Source: Candidatus Forterrea multitransposorum CG_2015-17_Forterrea_25_41
Lineage (GTDB): Archaea; Iainarchaeota; Iainarchaeia; Iainarchaeales; CSSED10-239
Assembly (NCBI GenBank): GCA_009392915.1
Contig: CP045477.1
Location: 96,001-160,000 of the forward strand
Length of the DNA: 64,000 nucleotides
Direction of reading: 5' to 3'
Shown here: piece after piece, positions 2,397 through 62,544 of the stretch
How positions within the stretch are numbered: the first letter of the stretch is position 1
Layout: every line of letters starts with the position of its first letter
Notes under the pieces: generated by a model
Databases searched by the model: none
Seen by the model: the letters and a program-made list of their open reading frames with translations, nothing else
Told to the model about the DNA's origin: nothing
Program-made: the position numbers and the translations under genes

Positions 2397-4484
2397 ATGC
2401 AGTTAAAGAAACTAACTTTAGTTTTATTATTTTTATTTATTTTTTCCATACCAGTTTTTTCTTCTTCTATAACTCTTTATGTTTCCTCTCCTTTTTCCTC
2501 TTCATCTTCAAATTTTAGTATTTCTCCTTCACTTTCTTTTGACAAGTTATCTTTAGTTTCAGAAGATAATTTATCTTTATTAAGAGAGCAAAATATTATT
2601 GTTAAAGAAGAAATTATTAAAGAAAAAGAATCTTCTTTAGAAGATAATTCTCTGTTAGAAGAAATAAATTCTCCAAATCATATTTATGAAACTTATTTTC
2701 AAGATTCTGTAATGATTGGAGATGTTTATTTTCCAGAAGGTATAATTGATTCTTCTCAAGTAAGAGAAAGAAGAAATATTAACTCTCAGTCTACAGTTGA
2801 TAATATTTGGGGTACCACTCCATTAACTGGAGAATATCATATTCCTGTTTTTTTAGTTGATTTTTCAGATGTTCCACATACTCTTTCTAAAGAAGTTTTT
2901 GAAGAACAATTTAATTCTCCTCTTTACTTGGACGGTAATGGTACAAGTGTAAGTCAGTATTACAAGAAACAATCCTATGGTGAACTTGATATTACTTTTG
3001 ATGTTTATGATTGGAGAGAAATGCCTGAAACTTATGAATATTATAGTACAAGATTAGGTGTTTTTGGAGCTCAAACAATAGATCTTTTTGGAACTGGTCC
3101 AAATGCAATTGATTTAACTCAATATGATTCTGATAATGATGGTAGGATAGATGGTTTTGTAATTGTTCACGCTGGTTTTTCTTTACAGAACGCTGGTACT
3201 GGTCATATTAAGACATCTACTTTATTAATGTATTCTGATGAAATTTTAACCATTCAAGGTTTGCATTATGGTAATATAGCTGTTACTTCTGAGAGATATC
3301 CTAGTTGTTCTTCTGGTTTTAATGAAAATTTAATTCCATATCCAGATGATTGTAGAATTGGTGTTTTAGATCAAACACATGAGTTTGGTCATATTTTAGG
3401 TCTTCCAGACTTTTATGGTATTGATCCAAATACTGGTGGTCAATCTCCTGGTCTTCAAAACCTAACTATGATGATGATGTATGATGACATTCCTCAAAAA
3501 CCAATTAATTTAGATGCTTGGGCAAGATATTTTTTAGGTTGGATACAACCAACTGTAATTGAAGAGGGCATGGAAGGTGTTTATCCAGTTTATTCAATTG
3601 ACACCAATCCAGATGGTGCTTTTATTTTACAAGATCTAACTGAGATGGATGAACGTGAATTTTTTATAATTGAAAATAGATTTATGCAAAACTCCCCTTA
3701 TAATCAAGATACTTTTCTTTTAAACACTTCTCAACTAAATTGGGATTATTTAAATGGTCATTTTGGTGGAATTGCAGTTTATCATGTTGATGAGCAATAC
3801 ATTGAAGATAATTATCCAACTAACAGTATCATGTGGGATCCTGATGGAGATTTTTATGATGATACTATAGGGCATCCTGGAATCGTTTTTGAAGAAAATA
3901 TAAAATTTTCAGAAAATAATTGGGATTATTCATTAGGAGATTTATATTCTAGTGAACGTAATGCTGGTTTTGGAGATAATACTTTTGGTAATTTTGATAG
4001 ATACCAAAGATTTTATCCAGAATATAATATGTTATGGGATTATCACAATAAAGCCTATAATGGTAATTTAACTGGTGTTACTGTTGGCACTTTAAGTGGT
4101 AGTGGATCTATAGTTTATGCTTATCTTCAAAGTTATCAAGAAACTTTTAATGCTTTAATCTCTTCTCCAAAAAATAACAGATGGTATAAGTATACTAATA
4201 ATTTAAATTTCATTTCAAGTTATTATAATAATTTAGGAGATGTAAGTTGTGTTTGGGAAGATTCCAGTAATAATATTCTATCTCAAGATTGTGAATTTTC
4301 TGCAACTCCAGAAGATTTAGGTTTACCAATCAGTGAATGTTCTGAGAAAATCACTCTAACTTTAGAAATAACAGATCAAGAAACTGGTGATACAATTATT
4401 GATACTGTTGATATAAAGATTTATGAAACCATAAGAGATATTTGTGAGACTGCTCATAACAACACCCAAGCAGCCACAAAATAA
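2397..4484 (+). CDS. secreted M6-family (immune inhibitor A-like) zinc metalloprotease
   Basis: N-terminal signal peptide (LTLVLLFLFIFSIPVFSSS). HEFGHILGLPDFYG matches the HExxHxLGLPDxY motif of the M6 metalloprotease domain (TIGR03296/PF05547 type). Large C-terminal non-catalytic region. Confidence 0.7.
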   Translation: MQLKKLTLVLLFLFIFSIPVFSSSITLYVSSPFSSSSSNFSISPSLSFDKLSLVSEDNLSLLREQNIIVKEEIIKEKESSLEDNSLLEEINSPNHIYETYFQDSVMIGDVYFPEGIIDSSQVRERRNINSQSTVDNIWGTTPLTGEYHIPVFLVDFSDVPHTLSKEVFEEQFNSPLYLDGNGTSVSQYYKKQSYGELDITFDVYDWREMPETYEYYSTRLGVFGAQTIDLFGTGPNAIDLTQYDSDNDGRIDGFVIVHAGFSLQNAGTGHIKTSTLLMYSDEILTIQGLHYGNIAVTSERYPSCSSGFNENLIPYPDDCRIGVLDQTHEFGHILGLPDFYGIDPNTGGQSPGLQNLTMMMMYDDIPQKPINLDAWARYFLGWIQPTVIEEGMEGVYPVYSIDTNPDGAFILQDLTEMDEREFFIIENRFMQNSPYNQDTFLLNTSQLNWDYLNGHFGGIAVYHVDEQYIEDNYPTNSIMWDPDGDFYDDTIGHPGIVFEENIKFSENNWDYSLGDLYSSERNAGFGDNTFGNFDRYQRFYPEYNMLWDYHNKAYNGNLTGVTVGTLSGSGSIVYAYLQSYQETFNALISSPKNNRWYKYTNNLNFISSYYNNLGDVSCVWEDSSNNILSQDCEFSATPEDLGLPISECSEKITLTLEITDQETGDTIIDTVDIKIYETIRDICETAHNNTQAATK

Positions 4485-42900: not shown

Positions 42901-44823
42901 ATGATTAAAATTGATATAAATAATTTAGATTATGAAAAACTAGGCCTTATGTGTGGTCTTGAATTACATCAACAGTTAAACACAAATAAACTTTTTTGTA
43001 ATTGTCCTTCAAAATTAATTAATGATGATTTAAAGCCAGATAAAGTAATCCATAGACAATTAAGAGCAGTTTCTTCAGAGACTGGAGATTTAGATGTTAC
43101 TGCAAAAGAAGAACAAGATAAAAATAAAATTTTTAAATATCTTTTTTATAATTCTTGTAATTGTTTAGTTGAAACAGATTCACAACCTCCTTTAAATATT
43201 AATAAAGATGCTTTAAATATTGCTTTAGTTGTTTCTTTTTTAACAAATTCAGTTGTTGTAAATACTTCTCATGTTATGAGAAAACAAGTAATTAATGGTT
43301 CTAATGTTTCTGGTTTTCAGAGAACTACAATGATTTCAACTGATGGTTATCTTGATTTTAGTTTTGGAAAAGTAAGAATTGATAAAATTCTTTTAGAAGA
43401 AGATGCTGCTAGAACAATTGAAAAAACTGATTCTATTGTAACTTATTCTTTAGATAGGCTTGGTATTCCTTTAATAGAATTAGTTGCATGGCATGATATG
43501 CACACTCCTGAACAAGTTAAAGAAGTTGCATTATATCTTGGACAAATGTTTCGAAGTACTGGTAAAACTAAAAGAGGTTTAGGTTCAATCAGACAAGACA
43601 TTAATATTTCTATTAAAGATGGTTCTAGAGTAGAGATTAAAGGTTGTCAAGATCTTGATTTAATTCCAGAGATTGTTAATAGAGAGATTGTTCGTCAATT
43701 AAATTTAATAGATATTAAAAAAGAAGTTATTGAAAAAAATCTTACTTCATTTTCTTTAAAACCTATTATGATTAATGATTATTTTAAGCAAACTGATTCT
43801 AAAGTTGTTTTAAAATCTTTTTCAGAAAATAAAAATGCTTATTTATTTTTACTTCCTGGATTTAAGGGTTTTTTAGGTAGAGAAATTCAACCAAACAGAA
43901 GACTTGGAACTGAAATTGCAAGTGTTTTAAAAATGAGAACTACTCTAAAAGGTCTTTTCCATTTAGATGAACTTCCAAATTATGGTATTACAGAAAAAGA
44001 AGTTAATTTAATTAAAAAAGATTTTTCTGTTAAAGAAAATGATTCCTTTATAATTATTTTTTCTTCTGAAAATGAAATTTCTTCAGTTAAAAATGTAATT
44101 GAAGATAGACTTAATAAACTTAAAGACGGGGTTTTAAAAGAAACTAGAGCTTCAACTGTTGAAGGAAATACAGAATATCAAAGACCTCTTTCAACTTCTT
44201 CAAGAATGTATCCTGAAACTGATCTTTCACCAATTGTTTTTAATGAAGAATTATTAGCTTTAGCTAAAAAAGAAGTTCCTTTATCTTTAGAAGATAGAAA
44301 AAAATTATATGTTGATACTTTTAAACTAAGTTCACAACTTGCAGATAAAATGAAACTTAATAATTTTGCACCAATTTTTGAAAAAATAGTTTCTGAATAT
44401 AAAATTAATCCTACAACTCTTTCAGTATTTTTACTTGAAGATTTAATTAAAGCTTCAAGAGAAGGAGTTTTAGATCTTGATGATGTTAATGATTCTTTAT
44501 TAATTAATTTTTTTAAAACAAAAGATTTGTTTAACAGAATTAATAAAAATAAACTTTTAGATGTCTTTATTGAATTTTTAAAAAATCCTCTTGATTTAGA
44601 AAGAATTATTCAAGAAAATAAAAAAGAGGATTTATCTTTTGATGTATTAACTAATATTATTGATCAAGTAATAGATGAAAATAAAGATTTTATTTTAAAA
44701 CAAAAAGAAAGATCTTTAGGTTTATTGATGGGAAGAGTAATGTCTAAAACTGAAAATAAATATGATGGGAAAATTATTTCTCAAACAATTAAAGAAAGAT
44801 TAAATCTTTTTTTAAAAAATTAA
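42901..44823 (+). CDS. gatE: Glu-tRNA(Gln) amidotransferase subunit E
   Basis: MCGLELHQQL...KLFC.CP..., ..NVSGFQRT.., ..GSIRQDINISI.. GatB/GatE core with the archaeal insertion domain. 640 aa. Confidence 0.9.
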   Translation: MIKIDINNLDYEKLGLMCGLELHQQLNTNKLFCNCPSKLINDDLKPDKVIHRQLRAVSSETGDLDVTAKEEQDKNKIFKYLFYNSCNCLVETDSQPPLNINKDALNIALVVSFLTNSVVVNTSHVMRKQVINGSNVSGFQRTTMISTDGYLDFSFGKVRIDKILLEEDAARTIEKTDSIVTYSLDRLGIPLIELVAWHDMHTPEQVKEVALYLGQMFRSTGKTKRGLGSIRQDINISIKDGSRVEIKGCQDLDLIPEIVNREIVRQLNLIDIKKEVIEKNLTSFSLKPIMINDYFKQTDSKVVLKSFSENKNAYLFLLPGFKGFLGREIQPNRRLGTEIASVLKMRTTLKGLFHLDELPNYGITEKEVNLIKKDFSVKENDSFIIIFSSENEISSVKNVIEDRLNKLKDGVLKETRASTVEGNTEYQRPLSTSSRMYPETDLSPIVFNEELLALAKKEVPLSLEDRKKLYVDTFKLSSQLADKMKLNNFAPIFEKIVSEYKINPTTLSVFLLEDLIKASREGVLDLDDVNDSLLINFFKTKDLFNRINKNKLLDVFIEFLKNPLDLERIIQENKKEDLSFDVLTNIIDQVIDENKDFILKQKERSLGLLMGRVMSKTENKYDGKIISQTIKERLNLFLKN

Positions 44824-46443: not shown

Positions 46444-46518
46444 GGGAGTGTAGCTTAGTCTGGTTGGAGCACTCGACTGATAATCGAGAGGCCGCAGGTT
46501 CGAATCCTGCCATTCCCA
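46444..46518 (+). tRNA. tRNA-Ile (anticodon GAU)
   Basis: Acceptor GGGAGTG/CATTCCC, anticodon stem CTCGA/TCGAG, loop CTGATAA, T arm GCAGG-TTCGAAT-CCTGC, discriminator A. TTTATAAATT box about 20 nt upstream. Confidence 0.9.
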
Positions 46519-46559
46519 CTTTCTATTTTTATATAGATTTTAAAAAAAGAGGATAATTT

Positions 46560-49450: not shown

Positions 49451-49525
49451 GGAAGTGTAGCTTAGTCTGGTTAGAGCATTGGTCTTATACACCAAAGGTC
49501 GCAGGTTCGAATCCTGCCATTTCCA
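49451..49525 (+). tRNA. tRNA-Ile (anticodon UAU)
   Basis: Acceptor GGAAGTG/CATTTCC, anticodon stem TTGGT/ACCAA, loop CTTATAC (UAU), T arm GCAGG-TTCGAAT-CCTGC. D and T arms almost identical to tRNA-Ile(GAU) at 46444. Confidence 0.85.
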
Positions 49526-49582
49526 CTTTTTTTTAAAAATAAAGCTTTATAAATCTAATTAACTACTATATATTAGATAATT

Positions 49583-52414: not shown

Positions 52415-52474
52415 ATTCCTTTATAAATATTTTGTATCTATAAAATATTTATGACTTACAATAATACTTTAAGT
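52415..52474 (+). promoter_or_regulatory. shared ~58-nt promoter/leader element, copy A (upstream of ileS)
   Basis: ATTCCTTTATAAATATTTTG (52415-52434) is identical to 55743-55762. Downstream blocks AATATTTATG and CAA(T)AATACTTT are also shared. Contains TATA box TTTATAAATA at 52420-52429, about 175 nt before the ATG. Confidence 0.5.
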
Positions 52475-52527
52475 TTTTATAAAGATAACTTAATTTCTAT
52501 AATTATAAGTATTATTATATATTGATA

Positions 52528-52603
52528 GGCAAAGATTAACCTTCATTCTAATTTTAATCTTTTGCCAAAATTTTAAGCTTTAAAGGTAGGTGGGCAAAAA
52601 TTA
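52528..52603 (+). promoter_or_regulatory. ileS leader hairpin with alternative pairing onto the SD/start region
   Basis: GGCAAAGATTAA (52528-52539) pairs with TTAATCTTTTGCC (52554-52566), 12 bp with one bulge. The nearly identical GGCAAAAATTA (52593-52603) overlaps the spacer and start codon and could pair with the same 3' arm. Confidence 0.35.
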
Positions 52604-55443
52604 TGTTTTCAAATCAAAATGAAAAAGAAATAAAAGAGTTTTGGGAAAAAAATAATATTCCTAAAAAAGTAAGAGAAAAAGAGTCTGATAAACATTATTA
52701 TTTTATAGACGGACCTCCATATGCAACAGGTTCTATTCATTTAGGAACTGCAATGAACAGGATCTTAAAAGATATTCTTTATAGGTTTAAAAGACAAGAA
52801 GGTTTTAAGGTTTTAGACATTCCTGGTTTTGATACTCATGGTGTGCCAATAGAACGTAAGGTGCAAAAAAAATATGATTTAAAATCAAAAGAAGATATTG
52901 AAGCTTTTGGTATTGAAAAATTTTCAAAAGAATGTCATGCATTTGCAACTAAACACATCTCTGAAATGTCAAAAGATATTTATGATTTAGGACAATGGAT
53001 GGATTGGGAAAATCCATATAGAACTTTAGATCAAACCTATATGCAATCTGCTTGGTGGACTTTTAAAAAAGCTTTTGATAAAGGTCTTTTATTTCATGAC
53101 AAATATCCTATCCATGTCTGTCCTGATTGTGAAACTTCAGTTTCTTTTAATGAAATTGAATATCAAGATTTAACTGATCTTTCAATTTTTGTTTCCTTAC
53201 AATCAAAAGAAGATTCTTCTCTTTTCTTTGTTATTTGGACAACAACTCCATGGACTCTACCTGCAAACATGGCAATCATGGTTCACCCTAAATATACATA
53301 TGTTGAGCTTATCTCAAACAATAAAAAATATATTGTTGCAAAAGATTTATCTGAAAAATTAATAAAAGAATTTAATTTTGAAAACTATACTTTAGGTAAA
53401 GAATATTTAGGAGAAGAACTTGTAGGTAAAGAATATCTTCCTGTTCTAGGAGAATGGTTAAATCTTCCTGAAGATTATACAAAAAATGCATATAAAATAA
53501 TCTCTTCAGCAAGACATGTAAACCTAGAAGACGGTTCTGGTTTAGTTCATTGTGCTCCAGGACATGGTAAAGAAGATTATCAAGTTGGAAGAGAATTTAA
53601 TATTCCTATATTTTCTCCGGTTACAATGTCAGGTGAGTATGATGATTCTGTTTCTTTTGGAAAAGGAAAAAAAGTTAAAGAACTTGATTTAGATATAATG
53701 AAATATTTACATGAAAAAGAATGTATCTTAGCTAAAAGAAAAGTAAAACATAGTTACCCTACATGTTGGAGATGTCATAATCCTTTAATAATGGTATCTT
53801 TACCTCAGTGGTTTTTAAGAATTGAAGATTTAAAACCAAGACTTGTAGAACTTAATGAAAGTGAAGTTTCTTGGCATCCTTCTTGGGGAAAAGATAGATT
53901 TTCAAACTGGCTTAAAAATTTATCTGATTGGCCAATTTCAAGAGCAAGATATTGGGGAACTCCTGTTCCTATTTGGAAATGTGATAACTGTGAAAAAATA
54001 CATGTCTTTGAGTCTTTAGAAGATTTAAAGAAAAAAGCTCCTGAAGTAGATTTAAATATGGATATTCATAAACCATTTATTGACAAAATAGAAATTACTT
54101 GTGATTGTGGAACAAAGGTGAAAAGAATTCCAGAAGTATTTGATGTTTGGTTTGATTCTGGTGTTGCATCATGGGCATCTTTAGGTTATCCTTTCAAAAA
54201 AGAATTATTTGATAAATATTGGCCAGCAGATGCTAATTTAGAAGGTCCTGATCAAATAAGAGGTTGGTGGAATTCTCAAATAATTGCTTCTGTAATTGCT
54301 TTTGATAAAGTTCCATTTAAACAAATTTCTATGCATGGTATGGTTCTTGCTGGAGATAAAAGAAAGCTTTCTAAATCTGAAGGAAATGATATTCCTTTAA
54401 TTGAAAGATTTTCACAAACTTCAATTGATTACTATAGATATTATTTTGCAAAAGAATTTTCAGGAGAAGACATTGTTTTAGATTCTAAAAAATTTGATGA
54501 AGTTAGAAGAACTTTAAATCTTTTAGAAAATCTTTATAATTTCATTTCTCTTTATGATGAAAAACAAACATTTGTAACTTCTTTAGATGTTTCAAAAGAA
54601 ACTTTACTTGTTGAAGATAAATGGATTCTTTCAAGATTTAATAATCTTTTAAAAAATAGTTATGCAAACTTTTCAACAACTAACTATTCAAAAGTTATAA
54701 ATGATTTTGAAAAATTTTTGCTTGAAGATTTTAGTAGAATATATGTTAAACTTTTAAGAAAAAGAAAAGATGAAAATCATGTTCTTTCATATGTCTTTTC
54801 CTCAAGTTTAATATTGATCTCACCAATAGTTCCTCATTTTACAGAATTCATGTATCAAAAGTTTTCTGTAAAAGAAAAAGAATCTGTGCATTTCTACCAT
54901 AATCCTTTAATCAATGAAAGTTTAATTGATTTAGATCTTGAAAAGAACTTTGACCTTTCTCAAGAAGTTGTAAAAACAGCTCTTTCTTTAAGAGAGGACT
55001 TAAAGAAAAGATTAAGATGGATCTTACCTGAAATGCATGTTGTTTTAAAAGACTTTGAAAAAATATCTATCTTTAAGGAAATTATAGAAGATATGGCAAA
55101 TATTGAAAATGTAAGTTTTTCAAATAATGCTCCTGATAACATGCCTTCAAAAGAAGTTTTAAAAGATGTTTTTGTATACATTAATGAAAACATTGATTCT
55201 TCTTATAAAGAAGTTTGGGAAGTATCAGAGCTTACAAGGCTTATACAGTCTGAGAGAAAGAAACAAAAGTTAAATCCAAATGATAAAGTTTCTTTGAAGA
55301 TATCTTGTAGTGAAAAAGATTTCCTTGTAAAAAATAAACCTAAAATTGAAGATGCAACAAACACTATTCTTGATATCTTGGACGATTTAAGTGAAGACAA
55401 TAAACAAAAGTTAATAGAGAGAGAAGTTTCTTTCTCTTTTTAA
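52603..55443 (+). CDS. ileS: isoleucyl-tRNA synthetase
   Basis: HIGH (PPYATGSIHLGTAMN) and KMSKS (KLSKS) motifs, editing domain, Cys clusters CPDC/CWRCHNP/CDNC/CDCG. 946 aa. Confidence 0.95.
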   Translation: MFSNQNEKEIKEFWEKNNIPKKVREKESDKHYYFIDGPPYATGSIHLGTAMNRILKDILYRFKRQEGFKVLDIPGFDTHGVPIERKVQKKYDLKSKEDIEAFGIEKFSKECHAFATKHISEMSKDIYDLGQWMDWENPYRTLDQTYMQSAWWTFKKAFDKGLLFHDKYPIHVCPDCETSVSFNEIEYQDLTDLSIFVSLQSKEDSSLFFVIWTTTPWTLPANMAIMVHPKYTYVELISNNKKYIVAKDLSEKLIKEFNFENYTLGKEYLGEELVGKEYLPVLGEWLNLPEDYTKNAYKIISSARHVNLEDGSGLVHCAPGHGKEDYQVGREFNIPIFSPVTMSGEYDDSVSFGKGKKVKELDLDIMKYLHEKECILAKRKVKHSYPTCWRCHNPLIMVSLPQWFLRIEDLKPRLVELNESEVSWHPSWGKDRFSNWLKNLSDWPISRARYWGTPVPIWKCDNCEKIHVFESLEDLKKKAPEVDLNMDIHKPFIDKIEITCDCGTKVKRIPEVFDVWFDSGVASWASLGYPFKKELFDKYWPADANLEGPDQIRGWWNSQIIASVIAFDKVPFKQISMHGMVLAGDKRKLSKSEGNDIPLIERFSQTSIDYYRYYFAKEFSGEDIVLDSKKFDEVRRTLNLLENLYNFISLYDEKQTFVTSLDVSKETLLVEDKWILSRFNNLLKNSYANFSTTNYSKVINDFEKFLLEDFSRIYVKLLRKRKDENHVLSYVFSSSLILISPIVPHFTEFMYQKFSVKEKESVHFYHNPLINESLIDLDLEKNFDLSQEVVKTALSLREDLKKRLRWILPEMHVVLKDFEKISIFKEIIEDMANIENVSFSNNAPDNMPSKEVLKDVFVYINENIDSSYKEVWEVSELTRLIQSERKKQKLNPNDKVSLKISCSEKDFLVKNKPKIEDATNTILDILDDLSEDNKQKLIEREVSFSF

Positions 55444-55461
55444 TTTTTTAAGTGATATTTT

Positions 55462-55647
55462 ATGAAATTAATTATAGATTCTAAATTAGATATATCTTTA
55501 AAAGAATGGTCTGAAGGAAAAAAATCTTTAGGAGATGTTTCTAAAGAAAATAATTTATCTATATGTCAAACAATGGAAGAAGCTAAAAAAAGAGGTCTTT
55601 CTTCAAGCATATCTTTAGAAGATATAAAAGATGATTTCAACTTATAA
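55462..55647 (+). CDS. UPF0175-like small protein (orphan antitoxin-like)
   Basis: 61 aa. SLKEWSEGKKSLGDVSKENNLSICQTMEEAKKRGL resembles the UPF0175 core (..Y..G.[IL]SLG.AA.LAG.S...F...L...G[IL]), as does the gene at 58120. Confidence 0.45.
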   Translation: MKLIIDSKLDISLKEWSEGKKSLGDVSKENNLSICQTMEEAKKRGLSSSISLEDIKDDFNL

Positions 55648-55742
55648 AGGTTATTTATAGTTTTTTCTTATATTTTATTTTTAATAATCTTTTTTTAAAT
55701 TAATTTTTATAATTAATAAATATCTTTAAAAGGTTATTTTCA

Positions 55743-55801
55743 ATTCCTTTATAAATATTTTGCTTCTTATTAATATTTATGTATTTCAAAATACTTTTAT
55801 C
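55743..55801 (+). promoter_or_regulatory. shared ~58-nt promoter/leader element, copy B (upstream of the AsnRS-like gene)
   Basis: See copy A. The 20-mer at 55743-55762 is identical, TATA box at 55748-55757, about 235 nt before ATG 55983. Confidence 0.5.
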
Positions 55802-55982
55802 AAAAACAAGATTTTTACAAATCTACTTATTTTCTGTAGTTAACTTTAATCTCCTTTAGAGGGAGAGAATTTAATATTTATCGGTTTATATAATATTTAT
55901 AGTACTTTATTAAAATAAAGTCTAAACATATTTATAGTAATTTTTAAAAAAAATATATTTATAAAAAAGGAGTTAATAATTT

Positions 55983-57287
55983 ATGGAAAAAAAATATTTA
56001 TCAATAAAAGAAGTTTTAGAAAAGAAAGAAGGAGAGGTATCTTTAAGAGGATGGGTACACAGGTTTAGAGACCAAAAGACAACAATCTTTATAACCTTAA
56101 GAGATGTTACAGGGGTAATACAACTTGTGTGTGATCAAGATAAAGTATCTCCAGAGCTTTTTGAAAAAATAAAACAAACAACTATAGAATCATCAATAGT
56201 TGTTTCTGGAACTGTAAGAAAAGAAGAAAGATCTCCTCAAGGTTATGAAATTGATATAAAAGATTATGAGATTGCAGGTCTTGCAGAAACTTATCCAATA
56301 TCAAAAGATTTTTCTGAAGAATTTCTTTTAGATGTAAGACACTTATGGTTAAGATCAAGAAAAATGCAAGCAATCTTAAAAATAAGATCAACTGTCTTTA
56401 GAGCTATTCATGATTATTTTAGAAGTCAAGATTATTATGAATATCAATCTCCAGTTCTTCAGTCAGTTCAATGTGAAGGAGGATCAAGTTTATTTAAGGT
56501 TGATTACTTTGAAAAGAAAGGTGTCTTTTTAGCACAGACATGGCAATTGTATGCAGAGCCAGCTATCTTTTCTTTAGAAAGAATATATACAATCTCTCCA
56601 TCTTTTAGAGCGGAAAAGTCAAAGACAACAAGACATTTAGCTGAATATTGGCATGCAGAGATGGAAGGAGCTTGGGTTTCTTTTGAAGAGTTACAAGAGC
56701 ATGCAGAAGGTTTAATAAAAAAAGTAATCTCTGATGTTTTAAAACACCATAGAGATGATCTTGAAACTTTAAAGAGAGATGTTAAAGTTTTAGAAACTGC
56801 AATTTCAAAACCTTTTGTAAAAATGACATACACCGAAGCTTTAGAGATTTTAAAAAAAGAGCATGACATGCATGTTGAATGGGGAAAAGACCTAAGAACT
56901 GTTGAAGAGGATCTTTTATCTAAAATGTATGATACTTTTATTATTATTACAAGATATCCAAAAGAAGTAAAAGCTTTTTATATGAAAGAAGATCCACAAG
57001 ACCCTAGAGTAGTTTTAGGTTTTGATTGTATCGGTCCTGAAGGTTATGGTGAGATTATAGGTGCAAGTGAAAGAGAGGATGATATTAAAAAAATAGTTGA
57101 AAGACTTGAAAAAGACGGAGAAGATGTCTCACAATATGATTTCTATCTTGACACTAGAAAATATGGTTCTGTCCCTCATTCTGGTTTTGGAATGGGTGTT
57201 GAAAGAATAATCTCTTATATCATAAAAGCTGATACAATAAAGGATGCTATTGCTTTCCCTAGAACAATGGTAAGGTATAGACCTTAA
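55983..57287 (+). CDS. asnS: class IIb aminoacyl-tRNA synthetase, AsnRS-like (Asn/Asp not fully resolved)
   Basis: N-terminal OB anticodon-binding domain. Motif 2 FRAEKSKTTRHLAEYWHAEME is closer to AsnRS FRAENSNTSRHLAEFW than to archaeal AspRS. Motif 3 GFGMGVERII...AFPR. 434 aa. Confidence 0.7.
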   Translation: MEKKYLSIKEVLEKKEGEVSLRGWVHRFRDQKTTIFITLRDVTGVIQLVCDQDKVSPELFEKIKQTTIESSIVVSGTVRKEERSPQGYEIDIKDYEIAGLAETYPISKDFSEEFLLDVRHLWLRSRKMQAILKIRSTVFRAIHDYFRSQDYYEYQSPVLQSVQCEGGSSLFKVDYFEKKGVFLAQTWQLYAEPAIFSLERIYTISPSFRAEKSKTTRHLAEYWHAEMEGAWVSFEELQEHAEGLIKKVISDVLKHHRDDLETLKRDVKVLETAISKPFVKMTYTEALEILKKEHDMHVEWGKDLRTVEEDLLSKMYDTFIIITRYPKEVKAFYMKEDPQDPRVVLGFDCIGPEGYGEIIGASEREDDIKKIVERLEKDGEDVSQYDFYLDTRKYGSVPHSGFGMGVERIISYIIKADTIKDAIAFPRTMVRYRP

Positions 57288-57595
57288 TTTTTTAAAAGAT
57301 AAAAGTATTATACTTTTTATAATACTTTTTCTTATATTATTTTAGATAATTTTATTTTGGGAATATATGATTAAAAATAAATCTAAGATTGTTTTAGAAG
57401 TAATTAAAGAAGTTGAAAAATTAAAAAAACAAAAGATTAAACCAATGTCAAAGAATGATTTAAATGATTTCTTTGAAAATGCTAAAAATTAATTTTTTAT
57501 ATTTAAATATTTTTTATATTCAATTTATTTGTCTAATTTTGTTTTTGTAATACAAATAGATTGTTTTTTAAACTTTTTGTATTACATAAATATAT

Positions 57596-58099
57596 ATGTT
57601 AAATAATAAAGTTAATGCTGTAATTGACTCTTCATTTTGGATAAACTTGAGTAGAGTTGATCTTACAAAATATTTATTAGATTATTTTACTATTTATTCT
57701 ACCATAAAAGTAAAAGAAGAACTTTTTGATTTTTACGAAAGAAGAGGTTATTTTTCAAAAGATTCTTATCTTTTTAAGTTATATTTAGAAGCAGATTTTA
57801 TTATTTTAAAAGACCTTAAAGAAATTACTTTAAAAATAAAGCAAGAATTGTCAAAAGATTCTGGAGAGTTATATTCTGCTGCTCTTTTAAAGGAAATTGG
57901 AGGTGTTTTTTTAACAGATGATAAGGGGGCACTTAATTTTTGCAAAAATAATAATCTTTTTGCAATTACTTCTGTTTATTTAATAGTTAGACTTTATAAG
58001 GATAATTTAATATCAAAAGAAAAAGCTAAATTTTCAATTATGCGATTAAAAGGAAAAATAAGTAATATACATATACAATCTGCTTTAAAGGATTTATAG
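57596..58099 (+). CDS. PIN-like nuclease, DUF3368-type toxin
   Basis: N-terminal VIDSSFWINL (acidic PIN site), later ..GELYSAALLKEIG..FLTDDKGA... Directly followed by a UPF0175 gene, the usual partner of DUF3368. Confidence 0.6.
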   Translation: MLNNKVNAVIDSSFWINLSRVDLTKYLLDYFTIYSTIKVKEELFDFYERRGYFSKDSYLFKLYLEADFIILKDLKEITLKIKQELSKDSGELYSAALLKEIGGVFLTDDKGALNFCKNNNLFAITSVYLIVRLYKDNLISKEKAKFSIMRLKGKISNIHIQSALKDL

Positions 58100-58119
58100 T
58101 ATAAAAGGAGGTTTTTAAC

Positions 58120-58476
58120 ATGGTTAAAAAAGATTATAAATTGAAATCTTATAGATTATCTGATAGTTCCTTAAAATTAATATATAATGTTTCTAAAGAA
58201 AAAGATTTGAGTGAATCTGAAGCTTTAAGAATGTTAGTTGACAAAGGGCTTTATGAATATAAGTTAGAGTCAGCAATAAAAACATATTATGATAAAAATT
58301 TAGATTTAACTGCTGGAGCAAAACTTGCTGGTATTTCCAAAAGAGAGTTTATGGAAGAACTTTCAAGAAAAGGGGAAGGTATTAATCTTTCAAAAGAAGA
58401 TTATGATTATTCTAAAAAATCTTTTGAAAAATTATTTGGAAAAACAAAAAAGAAAACTACTCAAAAGCCCAAGTAG
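58120..58476 (+). CDS. UPF0175-family antitoxin-like protein
   Basis: ..AIKTYYDKNLDLTAGAKLAGISKREFMEELSRKGEGI matches the UPF0175 core. The N-terminal part looks RHH-like (KSYRLSDSSLKLI). Confidence 0.6.
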   Translation: MVKKDYKLKSYRLSDSSLKLIYNVSKEKDLSESEALRMLVDKGLYEYKLESAIKTYYDKNLDLTAGAKLAGISKREFMEELSRKGEGINLSKEDYDYSKKSFEKLFGKTKKKTTQKPK

Positions 58477-59905
58477 TTTTTTCTTTAGAATCAAAAAGAA
58501 TAACTCCTTTTTTCTTAAGGTTTATTCTTATGATGTCTGCTTCTTCCCATTTCTTAGAATCTCTTAATTCTTGTCTTTTTAAAATTAATTTTTCAATTTC
58601 TTCAACAGGCATTTTATTTTTTGCTTTATTTTCACTATTACTTTCAAAATTTAAAACTTTAAAAACAAGATTTACTTTTTTCAAAAATTCTAAAATCTGT
58701 GATGCTTCTTCTCTGGTTAATTTTTCTTGATCCATTAGTTTGTTTGTTTCTTTTACAAGGAAAAAGATTTGCGCCCATGCATTTGGTGTGTTAAGATCAT
58801 CATCCATGGCTTTTTCAAAATTAAAGATTGATGTTTCAATAATTTCTTTTGCATAAAACATTTCTTTTTCTTGTTTAACTTCTTGAAGTCTTCTTATATA
58901 GTTGTTTAGGTTTTGTAAAGTTTTTTTAGCATCTAAAATAGATTGTTCTGTATAGTTTTGTGGTTTTCTATAATGTCCTGTTGAGAAAACATATCTAAGT
59001 TCTTCAGCTGTATTTTTCTTTAAAAAGTCTTCAATGGTTATAAAGTTTCCTAAGGATTTTCCCATTTTCTTTCCATCAATTGAAAGCATTGCTGTATGTA
59101 CCCAGTAGTTTACCATCTTATGATTTAAACAACCAAAGTTTTGTGCAATTTCATTTTCATGATGAGGGAAAACATGTTCTATTCCTCCGCCATGAATATC
59201 AAAATTATCTCCAAGATATTTATTACCCATAACTGAACATTCCATGTGCCAACCAGGATAGCCAAGACCCCATGGAGAATTCCATTTCAAGATATGCTCT
59301 GATTTTGCTTTTATCCAAACTGCAAAGTCTGCTGGGTTTTTCTTTTCTTCATCATTTTTAAATCTTGTATCTTTTAAAAGATCTTCAATCTTTCTGTTTG
59401 AAAAAGAACCATATTCTGAATATTTTGAAACATCAAAATAAATTCCATTTTTAGTTTCATATGCAAAACCATTTTCAAGAAGTTTTTTAACCCATTCTAT
59501 TATTTCTGGAACATGTGCTGAGGCTTGTGGTTCTATGTTTGGTCTTGATATTTTTAAATCATCAAAAGCTTTCCACATTCTATGTGAATATTTATAAGCA
59601 AGTTCCATTGGGTGTACTTTTCTTTCTTTTGCTCTTTTTGTCATTTTGTCTTCTCCAGAATCTCCTAAGCCATCATCTGTTAGATGACCAACATCTGTAA
59701 TGTTTCTAACATAGAAAATCTGGTAGTTATGAAAAATTTTAAAATAATTGATTAAAAGATCATAGTAGATATATGACATTGCATGCCCTAAATGAACATC
59801 ATCATAAACAGTTACTCCACACACATATATTTTAAGTAAACCTTTTTCAACAGGTTTAAAGGCTTCTTTTTTTCTTGTAAGTGTGTTGTAGAGTTTTATT
59901 GTCAT
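58457..59905 (-). CDS. cysS: cysteinyl-tRNA synthetase
   Basis: CGVTVYDDVHLGHA (HIGH), KMGKSLGN (KMSKS), ..GGIEHVFPHHENE.. 482 aa. Confidence 0.95.
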   Translation of the reverse strand: MTIKLYNTLTRKKEAFKPVEKGLLKIYVCGVTVYDDVHLGHAMSYIYYDLLINYFKIFHNYQIFYVRNITDVGHLTDDGLGDSGEDKMTKRAKERKVHPMELAYKYSHRMWKAFDDLKISRPNIEPQASAHVPEIIEWVKKLLENGFAYETKNGIYFDVSKYSEYGSFSNRKIEDLLKDTRFKNDEEKKNPADFAVWIKAKSEHILKWNSPWGLGYPGWHMECSVMGNKYLGDNFDIHGGGIEHVFPHHENEIAQNFGCLNHKMVNYWVHTAMLSIDGKKMGKSLGNFITIEDFLKKNTAEELRYVFSTGHYRKPQNYTEQSILDAKKTLQNLNNYIRRLQEVKQEKEMFYAKEIIETSIFNFEKAMDDDLNTPNAWAQIFFLVKETNKLMDQEKLTREEASQILEFLKKVNLVFKVLNFESNSENKAKNKMPVEEIEKLILKRQELRDSKKWEEADIIRINLKKKGVILFDSKEKTTWAFE

Positions 59906-60141: not shown

Positions 60142-62544
60142 ATGCAAAAGAGATTAGGTATTTTAGGTATTTTTTTAATAGTTTTAATGTTTGTTTTTTC
60201 ATCAGGCTTTGTTTTTGCTGAAAATTCATTTGTAAGTTATAGTTCTACTTCAAAAGTAGGTTGGGAAATAACTTCTGCTGAAATTACAAATGATAATATT
60301 GAAATTAATTACATGAATAATCTTGAAGCAAGAGATTCTTGTAAAACAAATGAAAGAACTTTTATGTGGGTTCCTTTTGCAACAGAATATAGAGGTTTGT
60401 TTTTAGTAACTCTTTTTGTTCCTAATAATTTTAATAATGAATCTGGATTTGATTCATTTTTGTATGATAATTTGTCTGACAGAGGAAAAAGTGAAAATGA
60501 AACAGAAGATACTCTTAAAAAATATGAACGATATTTAAAAAGTAATGATCCTACTTTTATGAATTATTTAAATAGTTATGTTAGTGAAGATAAATATTTT
60601 TATATAGTTAAAATTGAAGATGATTTTAAACAAAATAAAAATTATACTCATAATATTGATTTAAGTATGATTAATGAATTAGATAAATTTGGAAAAGTTT
60701 ATATTTATTTATATGATCATTGTGGAAGTTTATCTTCATTTTATCATAATGACTATAAAATTTCTAAAAATCTTGCGAAAGCAGTTTATAATTTTAGTGA
60801 TGGTCAAGAAGAAACTTCTAAAAAAGAAAATGCTACTTCAATAAAATTATCTTCTTCTATTGAAGATAATAAAATAAAATTAGATTCAAATGTTACTGAT
60901 AATGTTAATATTTATTATACATTAGATGATTTTAATTTAGAAAACCATTTTAAATCAAAATTTGTTGAATTTAATTATAATAAAGAAAAAATAAATACTT
61001 ATCTTAAAAGTAATTCTTGGAATATTAATCAATTTGGGGTAAATTTTAAAGTGACTAAATATACTGCACCTGTATCTTTATCTTCTGGACAAAAACTAAA
61101 TGCAATTGCAGTTAATTATGATAATTTTACTTTAAGTAATTATCTTGAAGGAATTACTCTTTCATCTTCTGAAAATTATTCTTCATCTTCTCAAAGCAAT
61201 AATTTTTCAATTAACTTTAAAGAAGATAAAAAAACAGATAATGTGATTTGTGAAAAGGAAACAAAAATTTGTTATGTTAAATTTAATCAAAACATTGATT
61301 TAGATTTAATTGCAAATAAAGTAAATGATGGAAATGTTTATTTTTATATTAATGATATAGAAGGAGATATTGAAAATATTGTAAAAAGCTTATCTTCTCC
61401 TCTTTTAAATATTACACCACCTGCTAAATTAAATGATAATAAACTAAGTTTAGGAAGTAATTTATTCAAATATTCAGATTTAGAAAATTATACTCTAAAT
61501 CTTAATCAAAATGAATCAAAGTTTTTTACTATTAGTGCTTTCCAATTAAATACAAATGTTGATAAGTTATATTTTGTATTTTTACCTGACGAAAACTTTG
61601 AAGATTTAGTAAAATATAAAACTTTACAAAAAATAATAAATTCTGTATATTGTGATGGTTGTAAAATTCCAGATTGGATGCCAAATGGATTAATAATTGA
61701 TAATCAAAATTTATCTACTAGTGATCCTGATCCTTCTACTAGTGATCCTGATCCTTCTACTAGTGATCCAAATTGTAAATATACTGGTGATTTTGAAATT
61801 TTATGTGATTTTCATATCTTTAATTTAGATAAAGATATTGGAAGTAGTTCTATTGATAGTTCAGCAGGAACATTTAGCCCTAAAGAAACATATTATTTAG
61901 AAATTGAATATTTTTATAATGATAAAAAAAATAATTTTAATAAAAATTTAGAAGCTTATAAATTATTTGAATCTGAAAAAAATAATTTTAATCTTACTGA
62001 AAATGAAATTACAATATTTTTTTCAATAATTGGAGGAGAATCCTCTTTTTTAAATGATCAAGCTGGTGATCAAGGAGAATCTATAGGTTTAACTCAAATA
62101 AATAAACCTATATGGAGAACAGAAAGTGGTTTTAATGATCTAAAAGTATATCTTCCAAGTGAAGTTAATACAGTTGAAAAATATTATAAATATTTTGATG
62201 ATTCTAAAAATGATTTAAATAAATCTTTATATTTAGGTCTTGCAGTTTTTAAATATAATTTAAATTATGCTAAAAATAATATTTCTAACTTTAATTCAAA
62301 GTATTCAGATATTGATAGAGCATTTATAATGTTTTACGCACACCAGTTTAATATAAGAGATACAAAAACATTCTTTAATACTGTAAATATTCCTACAGAT
62401 AAAGAAAATGTAATTATTAATTGTGCAGGAACTGGTAATGATTTATTCCAAAATTCTTCTTTAAAGAAACTTGGTTGTGTTGCGACTGTAGGTTCTGTAA
62501 GAAAAATTGGATGGTATCTTAATTACATAAATAATTTAAATTAA
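60142..62544 (+). CDS. secreted 800-aa protein with C-terminal lytic-transglycosylase-like (SLT, PF01464-like) domain
   Basis: Signal peptide LGIFLIVLMFVFSSGFVFA. C-terminal ..IIGGESSFLNDQAGDQGESIGLTQI.. matches the SLT pattern ES.F...A.S..GA.GLMQ. Downstream ..LYLGLAVFKYNL.. and ..FIMFYAHQ.. resemble later SLT helices. An STSDPDP linker precedes it. Confidence 0.55.
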   Translation: MQKRLGILGIFLIVLMFVFSSGFVFAENSFVSYSSTSKVGWEITSAEITNDNIEINYMNNLEARDSCKTNERTFMWVPFATEYRGLFLVTLFVPNNFNNESGFDSFLYDNLSDRGKSENETEDTLKKYERYLKSNDPTFMNYLNSYVSEDKYFYIVKIEDDFKQNKNYTHNIDLSMINELDKFGKVYIYLYDHCGSLSSFYHNDYKISKNLAKAVYNFSDGQEETSKKENATSIKLSSSIEDNKIKLDSNVTDNVNIYYTLDDFNLENHFKSKFVEFNYNKEKINTYLKSNSWNINQFGVNFKVTKYTAPVSLSSGQKLNAIAVNYDNFTLSNYLEGITLSSSENYSSSSQSNNFSINFKEDKKTDNVICEKETKICYVKFNQNIDLDLIANKVNDGNVYFYINDIEGDIENIVKSLSSPLLNITPPAKLNDNKLSLGSNLFKYSDLENYTLNLNQNESKFFTISAFQLNTNVDKLYFVFLPDENFEDLVKYKTLQKIINSVYCDGCKIPDWMPNGLIIDNQNLSTSDPDPSTSDPDPSTSDPNCKYTGDFEILCDFHIFNLDKDIGSSSIDSSAGTFSPKETYYLEIEYFYNDKKNNFNKNLEAYKLFESEKNNFNLTENEITIFFSIIGGESSFLNDQAGDQGESIGLTQINKPIWRTESGFNDLKVYLPSEVNTVEKYYKYFDDSKNDLNKSLYLGLAVFKYNLNYAKNNISNFNSKYSDIDRAFIMFYAHQFNIRDTKTFFNTVNIPTDKENVIINCAGTGNDLFQNSSLKKLGCVATVGSVRKIGWYLNYINNLN
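61714..61770 (+). repeat. perfect 21-nt in-frame tandem repeat (2.7 copies) encoding STSDPDP
   Basis: TCTACTAGTGATCCTGATCCT at 61714-61734 and 61735-61755, then TCTACTAGTGATCCA at 61756-61770. Confidence 0.95.

Follow-up and report, generated by a model that had tools for sequence, protein, structure and literature searches.

Candidate leader-peptide attenuators ahead of ileS and asnS in a putative DPANN archaeon

Known attenuators and the two leaders

Classical attenuators are found upstream of the bacterial aminoacyl-tRNA synthetase (aaRS) genes pheST in E. coli and trpS and leuS in Streptomyces, and translational T-boxes control ileS in actinobacteria by sequestering the Shine-Dalgarno (SD) sequence (PMC1262725). 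In mycobacteria, leaderless poly-Cys short open reading frames (sORFs) serve as attenuators that unmask the ribosome-binding site (RBS), in what has been called the 'Cys ribulon' (bioRxiv 10.1101/834739). Here, we analysed a 64,000-nucleotide stretch of contig CP045477.1 (the window), in which the genes for isoleucyl-tRNA synthetase (IleRS; ileS) and asparaginyl-tRNA synthetase (asnS) are each preceded by a short upstream open reading frame (uORF) ending in codons for the amino acid charged by the downstream enzyme, with a hairpin at the end of that frame. With moderate confidence, we read both as leader-peptide attenuators, in which the ribosome would sense the charging of the cognate tRNA. 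To our knowledge, the regulation of archaeal aaRS genes is essentially unknown, and no archaeal leader-peptide attenuator was found in the literature searched, which covered subscription journals only partly.

Compared with the classical aaRS attenuators, the two leaders have the same general layout, that is, a short ORF rich in cognate codons followed by an RNA structure, and the signal is presumed to be the same, namely ribosome speed as set by charged tRNA. However, the host here is an archaeon, the sensor ORF would be leaderless rather than SD-led, the cognate codons stand at the very end of the ORF, and there is one conserved hairpin instead of the 1:2, 2:3 and 3:4 set, with no terminator made of a hairpin and a U-tract. 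Archaeal RNA polymerase terminates differently from the bacterial enzyme. The mycobacterial Cys sORFs are similar in that a leaderless sORF is the first cistron, that it holds a codon tract for one amino acid and that several loci come under one signal, and their RBS unmasking agrees with the predicted folding of the asnS leader in the window. They differ in being bacterial and in controlling genes of cysteine metabolism, not aaRS genes; here, moreover, an RBS-sequestering duplex is supported in one lineage only, and the Asn sensor has 1-3 codons. In the translational attenuation of ermC and cat, stalling of a ribosome on the leader ORF changes which hairpins form, so that the SD is either exposed or hidden, and three segments of the ileS leader in the window (the 5' arm and 3' arm of its hairpin and a third copy) resemble that geometry. 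There, however, an antibiotic and a specific nascent peptide bring about the stall, not tRNA supply, and related loci have no counterpart of the third segment. T-box riboswitches, which are bacterial, likewise couple aaRS expression to cognate tRNA charging, and some of them control ileS through SD sequestration. The present leaders have no sequence or structure match to them, no specifier loop and no T-box motif, and sensing here would proceed through the translating ribosome, whereas T-boxes bind the tRNA directly.

Sensor codons, reading frames and hairpins

The window, part of a 663-kb metagenomic contig, has a G+C content of about 24% and encodes aIF5B, aIF2-gamma, ribosomal protein S24e, a thermosome subunit and GatD/GatE, and its nearest IleRS sequences come from metagenome-assembled genomes (MAGs) labelled 'Candidatus ainarchaeum', Diapherotrites or 'archaeon'. 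Such content indicates that the source organism is a DPANN archaeon of the Iainarchaeota, and the archaeal promoter assumed in an earlier note on this DNA was a reasonable choice. For comparison, 14 related Iainarchaeota-like loci were retrieved via IleRS homologues at 48-81% identity, 11 of which include asnS. The evidence is comparative and computational throughout. The loci are phylogenetically related, and the p-values therefore overstate independence, for which a test with one representative per deep lineage is a partial remedy; in addition, folding predictions are weak evidence in RNA that is this rich in A+U. The genes and the two short frames are as follows (aa, amino acids).

52603-55443, plus strand: ileS, 946 aa (TIGR00392, 763.7 bits; Pfam tRNA-synt_1 and Anticodon_1)
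55983-57287, plus strand: asnS, 434 aa (NF003037, 476.6 bits; TIGR00457, 430.3 bits)
52451-52525, plus strand: putative leaderless uORF-Ile, 24 codons, MTYNNTLSFYKDNLISIIISIIIY and stop; Ile-rich stretch at 52493-52519, stop TGA at 52523-52525
55779-55859, plus strand: putative leaderless uORF-Asn, 26 codons, MYFKILLSKTRFLQIYLFSVVNFNLL and stop; Asn codons at 55842-55844 and 55848-55850, stop TAG at 55857-55859

The profile hits TIGR00392 and NF003037 agree with the gene assignments of the earlier note, which had placed a shared element upstream of ileS and asnS and overlooked the two short ORFs that start 31 nucleotides (nt) after its TATA box. Seven of the last 10 codons of the ileS uORF encode Ile, and its stop codon lies 2 nt ahead of the hairpin and 77 nt ahead of ileS. 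The asnS uORF carries Asn at positions -5 and -3 relative to its stop, and asnS starts 123 nt downstream.

First, the final codons of the uORFs match the enzyme encoded downstream, and they do so reciprocally. When the last six sense codons were counted, Ile made up 47/66 in the ileS uORFs and 2/60 in the asnS uORFs (p = 1e-16), and Asn made up 20/60 in the asnS uORFs and 1/66 in the ileS uORFs (p = 9e-7). In the remainder of the frames, Asn was found at 3/184 codons of the asnS uORFs versus 35/206 of the ileS uORFs (p = 7e-8). When each deep lineage was represented by a single locus, p was still 1e-10 for Ile and 3e-4 for Asn. The reference proteins of the window contain 9.6% Ile and 5.0% Asn, and at least four Ile in the last six codons were found in only 2 of 527 window sORFs (ATG-started, 12-45 codons, both strands), one of which is the ileS uORF itself. 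Because the enrichment is reciprocal and position-dependent, the codon content is not mere A+T bias. The Ile codons of the uORFs are 24 ATT and 23 ATA, and this free interchange places the constraint on the amino acid or codon family rather than on a fixed DNA word.

The cognate tRNA genes were also located. A tRNA-Ile(UAU) gene is found near ileS throughout the clade and in L207 and L208 immediately precedes the promoter of the ileS uORF; the tRNA-Ile coordinates are 49451-49526 and 46444-46519 in the window, where a tRNA-Ile(GAU) gene is also nearby, 3114-3189 in L207, 3151-3227 in L208, 2297-2371 in L211, 370-445 in L206 and 677-753 in L003. A tRNA-Ile(UAU) is unusual in archaea, most of which decode AUA with a modified CAU tRNA. 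Since the Ile runs use ATA and ATT about equally, both tRNA-Ile isoacceptors would be probed. A tRNA-Asn(GUU) gene follows just downstream of asnS in L207 (9315-9387), L208 (8830-8903) and L212 (8880-8953, 19 nt after asnS), so that in parts of the clade cognate tRNA genes are linked to both aaRS genes; the window contains no tRNA-Asn gene.

Second, the frames are conserved among relatives in a way that follows their ends. The ileS uORF was found in 10 of the 14 related loci, all carriers having at least 61% IleRS identity (n = 11 with the window), and it ends in III(x)-stop in every carrier. The C-termini in the relatives are as follows.

L002: ...LISIIITIIY-stop
L082: ...IIYIIIGIIYL-stop
L085: ...ISIIISIIIK-stop
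L206: ...NIFISIIIE-stop
L083: ...LFISIIIQ-stop
L084: ...NINIIII-stop
L212: ...SISIIII-stop
L003: ...SIIFIII-stop
L207: ...SIISIIII-stop
L208: ...SISIIIQ-stop

The N-terminal parts of these peptides are almost unrelated and only the C-terminal codons are kept, and their lengths differ by whole codons (indels in multiples of 3) with the frame left open; the probability of an open frame in shuffled sequence is 0.03-0.10 per locus. Among the 11 related loci with asnS, 9 have the asnS uORF (n = 10 with the window), and its end, F/I-N-x-x-stop, is invariant, with Asn always at -3 (NFNLL, VFNFP, IFNCP, NFNCL, NFNGP, NFNGL and NINGQ, each before the stop). Among the four closest loci, nucleotide identity is 89-95% in the asnS uORF, 79-87% in the asnS coding sequence and 66-75% in the remaining leader; the uORF differences fall mostly at third codon positions, and the peptide is kept over its full length. 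Both uORFs remain linked to ileS and asnS despite a changed upstream neighbour (Na/H exchanger, tRNA-Ile, PCNA or Na/Ca exchanger), and across the loci the aaRS gene is putatively SD-led and begins 67-156 nt further downstream.

When 78 IleRS loci (3 close relatives and 75 more distant ones) were scanned for Ile-terminated uORFs, the frequency outside the clade was at about chance level: apart from L002 and L003, which belong to the clade, hits came from L048 (Woesearchaeota) and L056 (Bacilli) alone. In L048, a Woesearchaeota MAG whose IleRS is about 31% identical, a TATA-preceded sORF at 3902-3943 (MKSLSQDITSIII and stop) ends 58 nt ahead of ileS. It could be an independent instance of the same device or a chance hit, at least about 0.5 of which are expected in the loci scanned.

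Third, each uORF is directly associated with a hairpin.

52528-52566, plus strand: ileS leader hairpin made of GGCAAAGATTAA (52528-39), a 14-nt loop and TTAATCTTTTGCC (52554-66)
55850-55866, plus strand: G+C-rich asnS leader hairpin TCTCCTT-TAG-AGGGAGA, made of the last two uORF codons, the stop codon (loop) and the next 7 nt; -7.3 kcal/mol

The ileS hairpin, which the earlier note had already described, is the dominant predicted structure of its leader (minimum free energy -10.3 kcal/mol, z = -2.9, 2% of shuffles equally stable). A stable hairpin is present 0-6 nt after the ileS uORF stop in 11/11 uORF-bearing loci (-8.5 to -14.6 kcal/mol, z = -1.3 to -4.4). Its core, AAGATTAA/TTAATCTT, is invariant in 7 lineages and therefore gives no information on pairing, and in RNAalifold the outer pairs were misaligned owing to bulges, so that formal covariation is weak within the close group. 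For this reason, the case for the ileS hairpin rests on the diverged stems, which are unrelated in L003, L207 and L208 and partly different in L212. The loop sequences are not conserved, and no repeat of the hairpin core was found elsewhere in the window. The asnS hairpin was recovered from 10/10 loci. Compensatory change affects 4 positions of its stem: three pair types occur at -6 and -5, and the other two positions are -2 and -1. Comparison of the sequences shows conservation beyond chance for the uORFs, for their cognate codons and for the hairpins, and a conserved, putatively leaderless uORF that ends in cognate codons and adjoins a hairpin points to ribosome-mediated sensing by a leader peptide.

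Within the ileS uORF of the window, AATAATACTT (52458-52470, codons 4-7) is exactly complementary to the Ile run AAGTATTATT (52507-52518), with a pairing energy of -9.5 kcal/mol (p = 0.008). Pairing between the 5' part of the uORF and the Ile run is significant in the window, L083 and L206 and not in most other loci.

The promoters of the two leaders share the following elements.

52415-52434, plus strand: shared 20-mer ATTCCTTTATAAATATTTTG, ileS copy, an exact duplicate of 55743-55762 that includes flanking ATTCC and ATTTTG
52420-52427, plus strand: TATA box TTTATAAA within the ileS copy
55743-55762, plus strand: shared 20-mer ATTCCTTTATAAATATTTTG, asnS copy, an exact duplicate of 52415-52434
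55748-55755, plus strand: TATA box TTTATAAA within the asnS copy

The exact 20-nt match at 52415 and 55743 was reported in the earlier note, and it is present; a window search at up to 3 mismatches gave one further match, at 44042 within the gatE ORF with 2 mismatches, and three such hits arose in 0/100 dinucleotide shuffles. The further shared blocks that had been seen behind the 20-mer are also present, the similarity of the leaders running gapless through AATATTTATG and then, with a 1-nt indel, through CAA(T)AATACTTT, a block that belongs to the AATAATACTT/AAGTATTATT pairing described above. The distance from the first T of the TATA box to the ATG is 31 nt in both copies (52420 to 52451 and 55748 to 55779), no SD was found upstream of either uORF ATG, and the TATA-ATTTTG core is found again at the orthologous position in relatives. 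Such spacing is consistent with archaeal leaderless genes and would let transcription begin at the ATG or beside it, as expected of a leaderless ORF. The view that the shared element is a promoter with its TATA box and marks the 5' end of long leaders is supported. In the window, the extended motif TATAAATATTTTG is exact at the two promoters and at one site within an ORF only. The latter copy (62185-62197, inside an 800-aa ORF at 60142-62544) may be an internal promoter or may have arisen by chance. A dispersed repeat or mobile element was rejected as the origin of the shared sequences because the 20-mer and the hairpin core occur nowhere else in the window.

The route from stalling to synthetase output

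In the mechanism that we propose, the TATA-type promoter in the shared 20-mer would start transcription at or next to the AUG, and the mRNA would open with a leaderless short ORF. The final sense codons, which encode the amino acid charged by the downstream enzyme, would act as the sensor, and the hairpin lies where the front of the ribosome would be while these codons are read: at ileS it begins 2 nt past the stop, and at asnS the final codons and the stop are part of it. A shortage of charged tRNA-Ile or tRNA-Asn would make ribosomes stall on the sensor codons, and the place and duration of the stall would refold the leader and alter synthetase expression. Much of this is inferred: that the uORFs are translated and co-transcribed with the aaRS genes, that ribosomes stall, and how and in which direction expression responds. 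The features on which the last step would depend are as follows.

55830-55859, plus strand: 3' end of uORF-Asn, TTTTCTGTAGTTAACTTTAATCTCCTTTAG, complementary to the asnS SD and start region (55961-55994)
55969-55972, plus strand: putative asnS SD core GGAG, read from the sequence
52585-52592, plus strand: putative ileS SD, GGTAGGTG
52593-52603, plus strand: near-copy of the ileS hairpin 5' arm (third copy), GGCAAAAATTA, overlapping the A of the ileS ATG

At asnS, the prediction for this genome is that a stalled ribosome covers a part of the uORF which, when free, would base-pair with the SD and AUG of asnS. The duplex between the uORF end and the translation initiation region (TIR) has a predicted energy of -16.2 kcal/mol in the window (p = 0.014 versus dinucleotide shuffles), and this uORF end is the best anti-TIR segment of the entire leader. 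When a ribosome footprint at Asn(-3) was blocked in the folding, the predicted unpaired probability of the asnS SD rose from 0.29 to 0.70. As the uORF end would mask the SD and AUG and the footprint would free the SD, a stall would switch asnS translation on. The window shares this pairing with L002 and L085 (p = 0.012-0.017 for the three loci), L206 and L084 are marginal cases, and the uORF end ranks first among anti-TIR segments in 6/10 leaders. In these folding models, RBS masking by the uORF end is supported for asnS only, and in this lineage. AAGGAG, GGAG or AAGGTG is found in most orthologous asnS leaders, L209 having TGGATGTG only.

The asnS leader of the window also contains, at 55873-55965, four more ATATTTAT(A/C) repeats (55873, 55891, 55929 and 55954). 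The first of them, AATATTTATCGGTTTA, is kept in three relatives (L002, L085 and L206), and three others (L207, L208 and L212) have a similar block. The repeats may serve as TATA boxes inside the leader or belong to an RNA element.

At ileS, the prediction is weaker. A stall upstream would leave the hairpin closed and the SD free, and a ribosome that runs to the stop would open the hairpin, so that the 3' arm could pair with the SD-AUG spacer at 52593-52603. The third copy of the arm over the A of the ATG, as pointed out in the earlier note, is indeed present, and in the closer relatives (A)AAGGTAGGTG or a near variant is kept 7-11 nt ahead of the ileS ATG. The 3' arm pairs with the third copy at -9.5 kcal/mol, compared with -13.1 kcal/mol for the main hairpin, and blocking the 5' arm makes this helix the fold of lowest energy. 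The choice of the 3' arm between two partners, which the earlier note had proposed, is thus feasible in the window, but the third copy is absent from all relatives, in most of which the 3' arm pairs with the TIR hardly better than expected by chance, and we rejected the alternative helix as a general mechanism. Other routes were also examined and rejected. Footprint blocking on the ileS leaders changed SD accessibility inconsistently across lineages, and a classical 1:2 / 2:3 scheme does not apply since the Ile run pairs with neither hairpin arm. Mutually exclusive terminator and antiterminator hairpins were not found, there being one conserved hairpin only. Terminators formed by T-runs behind the hairpins were rejected as inconsistent: T-runs of at least 5 occur in or after many hairpins across the loci, at positions that vary and at a frequency expected by chance at this base composition, and the ileS hairpin of the window is trailed by AAAAUUUU with no T-run of at least 5. 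A terminator scan of both leaders in the window gave no intrinsic terminator.

Several observations weigh against attenuation by leader peptides. The Asn sensor is small, with 1-3 Asn codons only. The ileS uORF is absent in L004, L209, L210 and the 48%-identity clade L211, the asnS uORF is absent in L003, and no Cys uORF was found upstream of the neighbouring cysS, the third aaRS gene of the window. In five loci (L083, L212, L207, L208 and L209), the predicted pairing between the asnS uORF end and the SD falls short of significance. No RBS-sequestering duplex at ileS was consistent across the loci, the pairing of the ileS 3' arm with the TIR is no better than in shuffles in most relatives (p = 0.02-0.42), and the alternative ileS helix is specific to the window. 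As no consistent U-tract follows the hairpins, a version that acts through transcription termination is unsupported. Finally, TATA-like sequences occur throughout the leaders of this 24% G+C genome, for example TTTATAGT at 55933 and the Ile-codon run, and proximal aaRS promoters are possible. The sensing module is well supported by the comparison, and the route from stall to output may differ between lineages.

Other explanations, gene neighbourhood and significance

Among the other explanations, the one that survives best, although we think it unlikely, is that the uORFs are translated with no role in amino-acid sensing, as a translational enhancer or ribosome-loading site, as an mRNA stabiliser together with the hairpin, or for a functional small hydrophobic peptide. 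The peptides are hydrophobic, and the L003 tail NYFFVIIVLVSIIFIII is long enough for a membrane helix; the end-to-end conservation of the asnS peptide in the closest four loci and the lack of a conserved link between stall and output would also suit this explanation, and an enhancer role has been proposed for ribosome reinitiation at bacterial leader genes (PMC4833913). However, it does not account for an Ile and Asn enrichment that is reciprocal, positional and matched to the downstream enzyme, with Asn avoided elsewhere in the asnS uORFs. Moreover, the ileS peptides of L208 (MNKLNLKIKELSLNNKNNIYSSISISIIIQ) and L212 (MQKKLYNKEKSISIIII) could not form a membrane helix, being too polar or too short, and the ileS uORFs keep their C-terminal codons only.

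A less probable explanation is that each uORF forms, with its hairpin, a separate small transcription unit, that the aaRS genes have their own proximal promoters, and that the 20-mer is a strong consensus promoter used twice, which would leave neither a long leader nor control in cis. TTTATAAATA is the consensus TATA box of this genome, with 9 copies in the window, and the pattern TTTATAAAYATTTTG-N15-17-ATG also stands ahead of ordinary long ORFs in unrelated metagenome contigs, among the matches listed. The stretches from the uORFs to the aaRS starts contain TATA-like motifs, such as that at 55933 before asnS, and the T-runs of at least 5 in or after many hairpins could terminate archaeal transcription. 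On the other hand, the exact TATAAATATTTTG is confined to these two promoters and the one site within an ORF, the T-runs are chance-expected and missing from the ileS hairpin of the window, and an unlinked gene would explain neither the persistence of the uORFs beside ileS and asnS through rearrangements nor their matching codons.

The earlier note had proposed that the ileS leader is a switch, in which an RNA that senses a ligand, a tRNA or a protein lets the 3' arm alternate between partners at the ileS RBS, with no translated uORF; we now regard this as improbable. Both helices are feasible in the window, and the alternative is the minimum-energy fold once the 5' arm is removed. Against it stand the missing third copy in the relatives and the chance-level complementarity described above, as well as a whole-leader folding energy that is unexceptional (z = -0.75 for the ileS leader and -0.58 for that of asnS). 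There was no Rfam hit at the gathering threshold in the window, and none of any family, T-box included, at E <= 10 in either leader. A switch of this kind also leaves the conserved frames and cognate codons unexplained. What stood up from that proposal is a cis-regulatory leader tied to an amino acid or tRNA; what did not is a protein-free riboswitch or T-box-like RNA, a putatively translated uORF being conserved instead. On the sequence evidence, the aaRS leaders are probably cis-regulatory and probably sense tRNA charging by a translated leader peptide rather than by a tRNA- or ligand-binding RNA.

Autoregulation by IleRS, binding the hairpin core AAGAUUAA/UUAAUCUU (which contains GAU and AUC) as a tRNA-like operator in the way E. 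coli ThrRS binds one on thrS, is the least credible of the explanations: both core arms are invariant in 7 lineages with diverged uORF N-termini, which suggests a sequence-specific constraint beyond base pairing, but the stems are unrelated in L003, L207 and L208, L212 keeps part of the core, the loops are not conserved and share no anticodon-like sequence, and the Ile codon run and the parallel asnS arrangement are left unexplained.

In the gene neighbourhood, ileS, asnS and cysS, the last on the minus strand, lie within about 7 kb (52603-59905 of the window), making three aaRS genes. The same order is found again in L206 and L003, with cognate uORFs at ileS and asnS only. Between asnS and cysS, at 57596-58476, there is a gene pair encoding DUF3368 (PIN-like, 167 aa) and UPF0175 (118 aa), which looks like a toxin-antitoxin module and is also found near asnS in L208. 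Right behind ileS and ahead of the asnS uORF promoter is a 61-aa ORF with no Pfam match (55462-55647), and L085 has a comparable small ORF of 68 aa after ileS. The sole terminator-like hairpin with a T-run in this region, AGAGAGAGAAGTTTCTTTCTCT followed by TTTTAATTTT at 55416-55437, overlaps the final ileS codons shortly before the ileS stop at 55443.

In conclusion, the conserved uORFs, their cognate codons and the adjacent hairpins argue for leader-peptide attenuation of ileS and asnS. We are evenly balanced on the wider claim that these leaders are the first amino-acid-specific, ribosome-mediated attenuators in Archaea, with leaderless peptides that read the charging of tRNA-Ile and tRNA-Asn and adjust the synthesis of the matching aaRS in a genome-reduced DPANN archaeon. 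If this is true, leader-peptide sensing is not limited to bacteria, and a mechanistic question is raised as to how a stalled ribosome is read out, given archaeal transcription termination and leaderless initiation. The arrangement found here also provides a search rule (a TATA box, an ATG about 31 nt on, a short ORF ending in cognate codons and a hairpin) that can be applied to all aaRS and amino-acid genes of DPANN and other archaea. For the organism itself, a genome of about 0.66 Mb would sense its amino-acid supply via the ribosome, with no need of a dedicated regulator, and such sensing may form a small ribosome-directed regulon that reaches other aaRS genes of the same genome.

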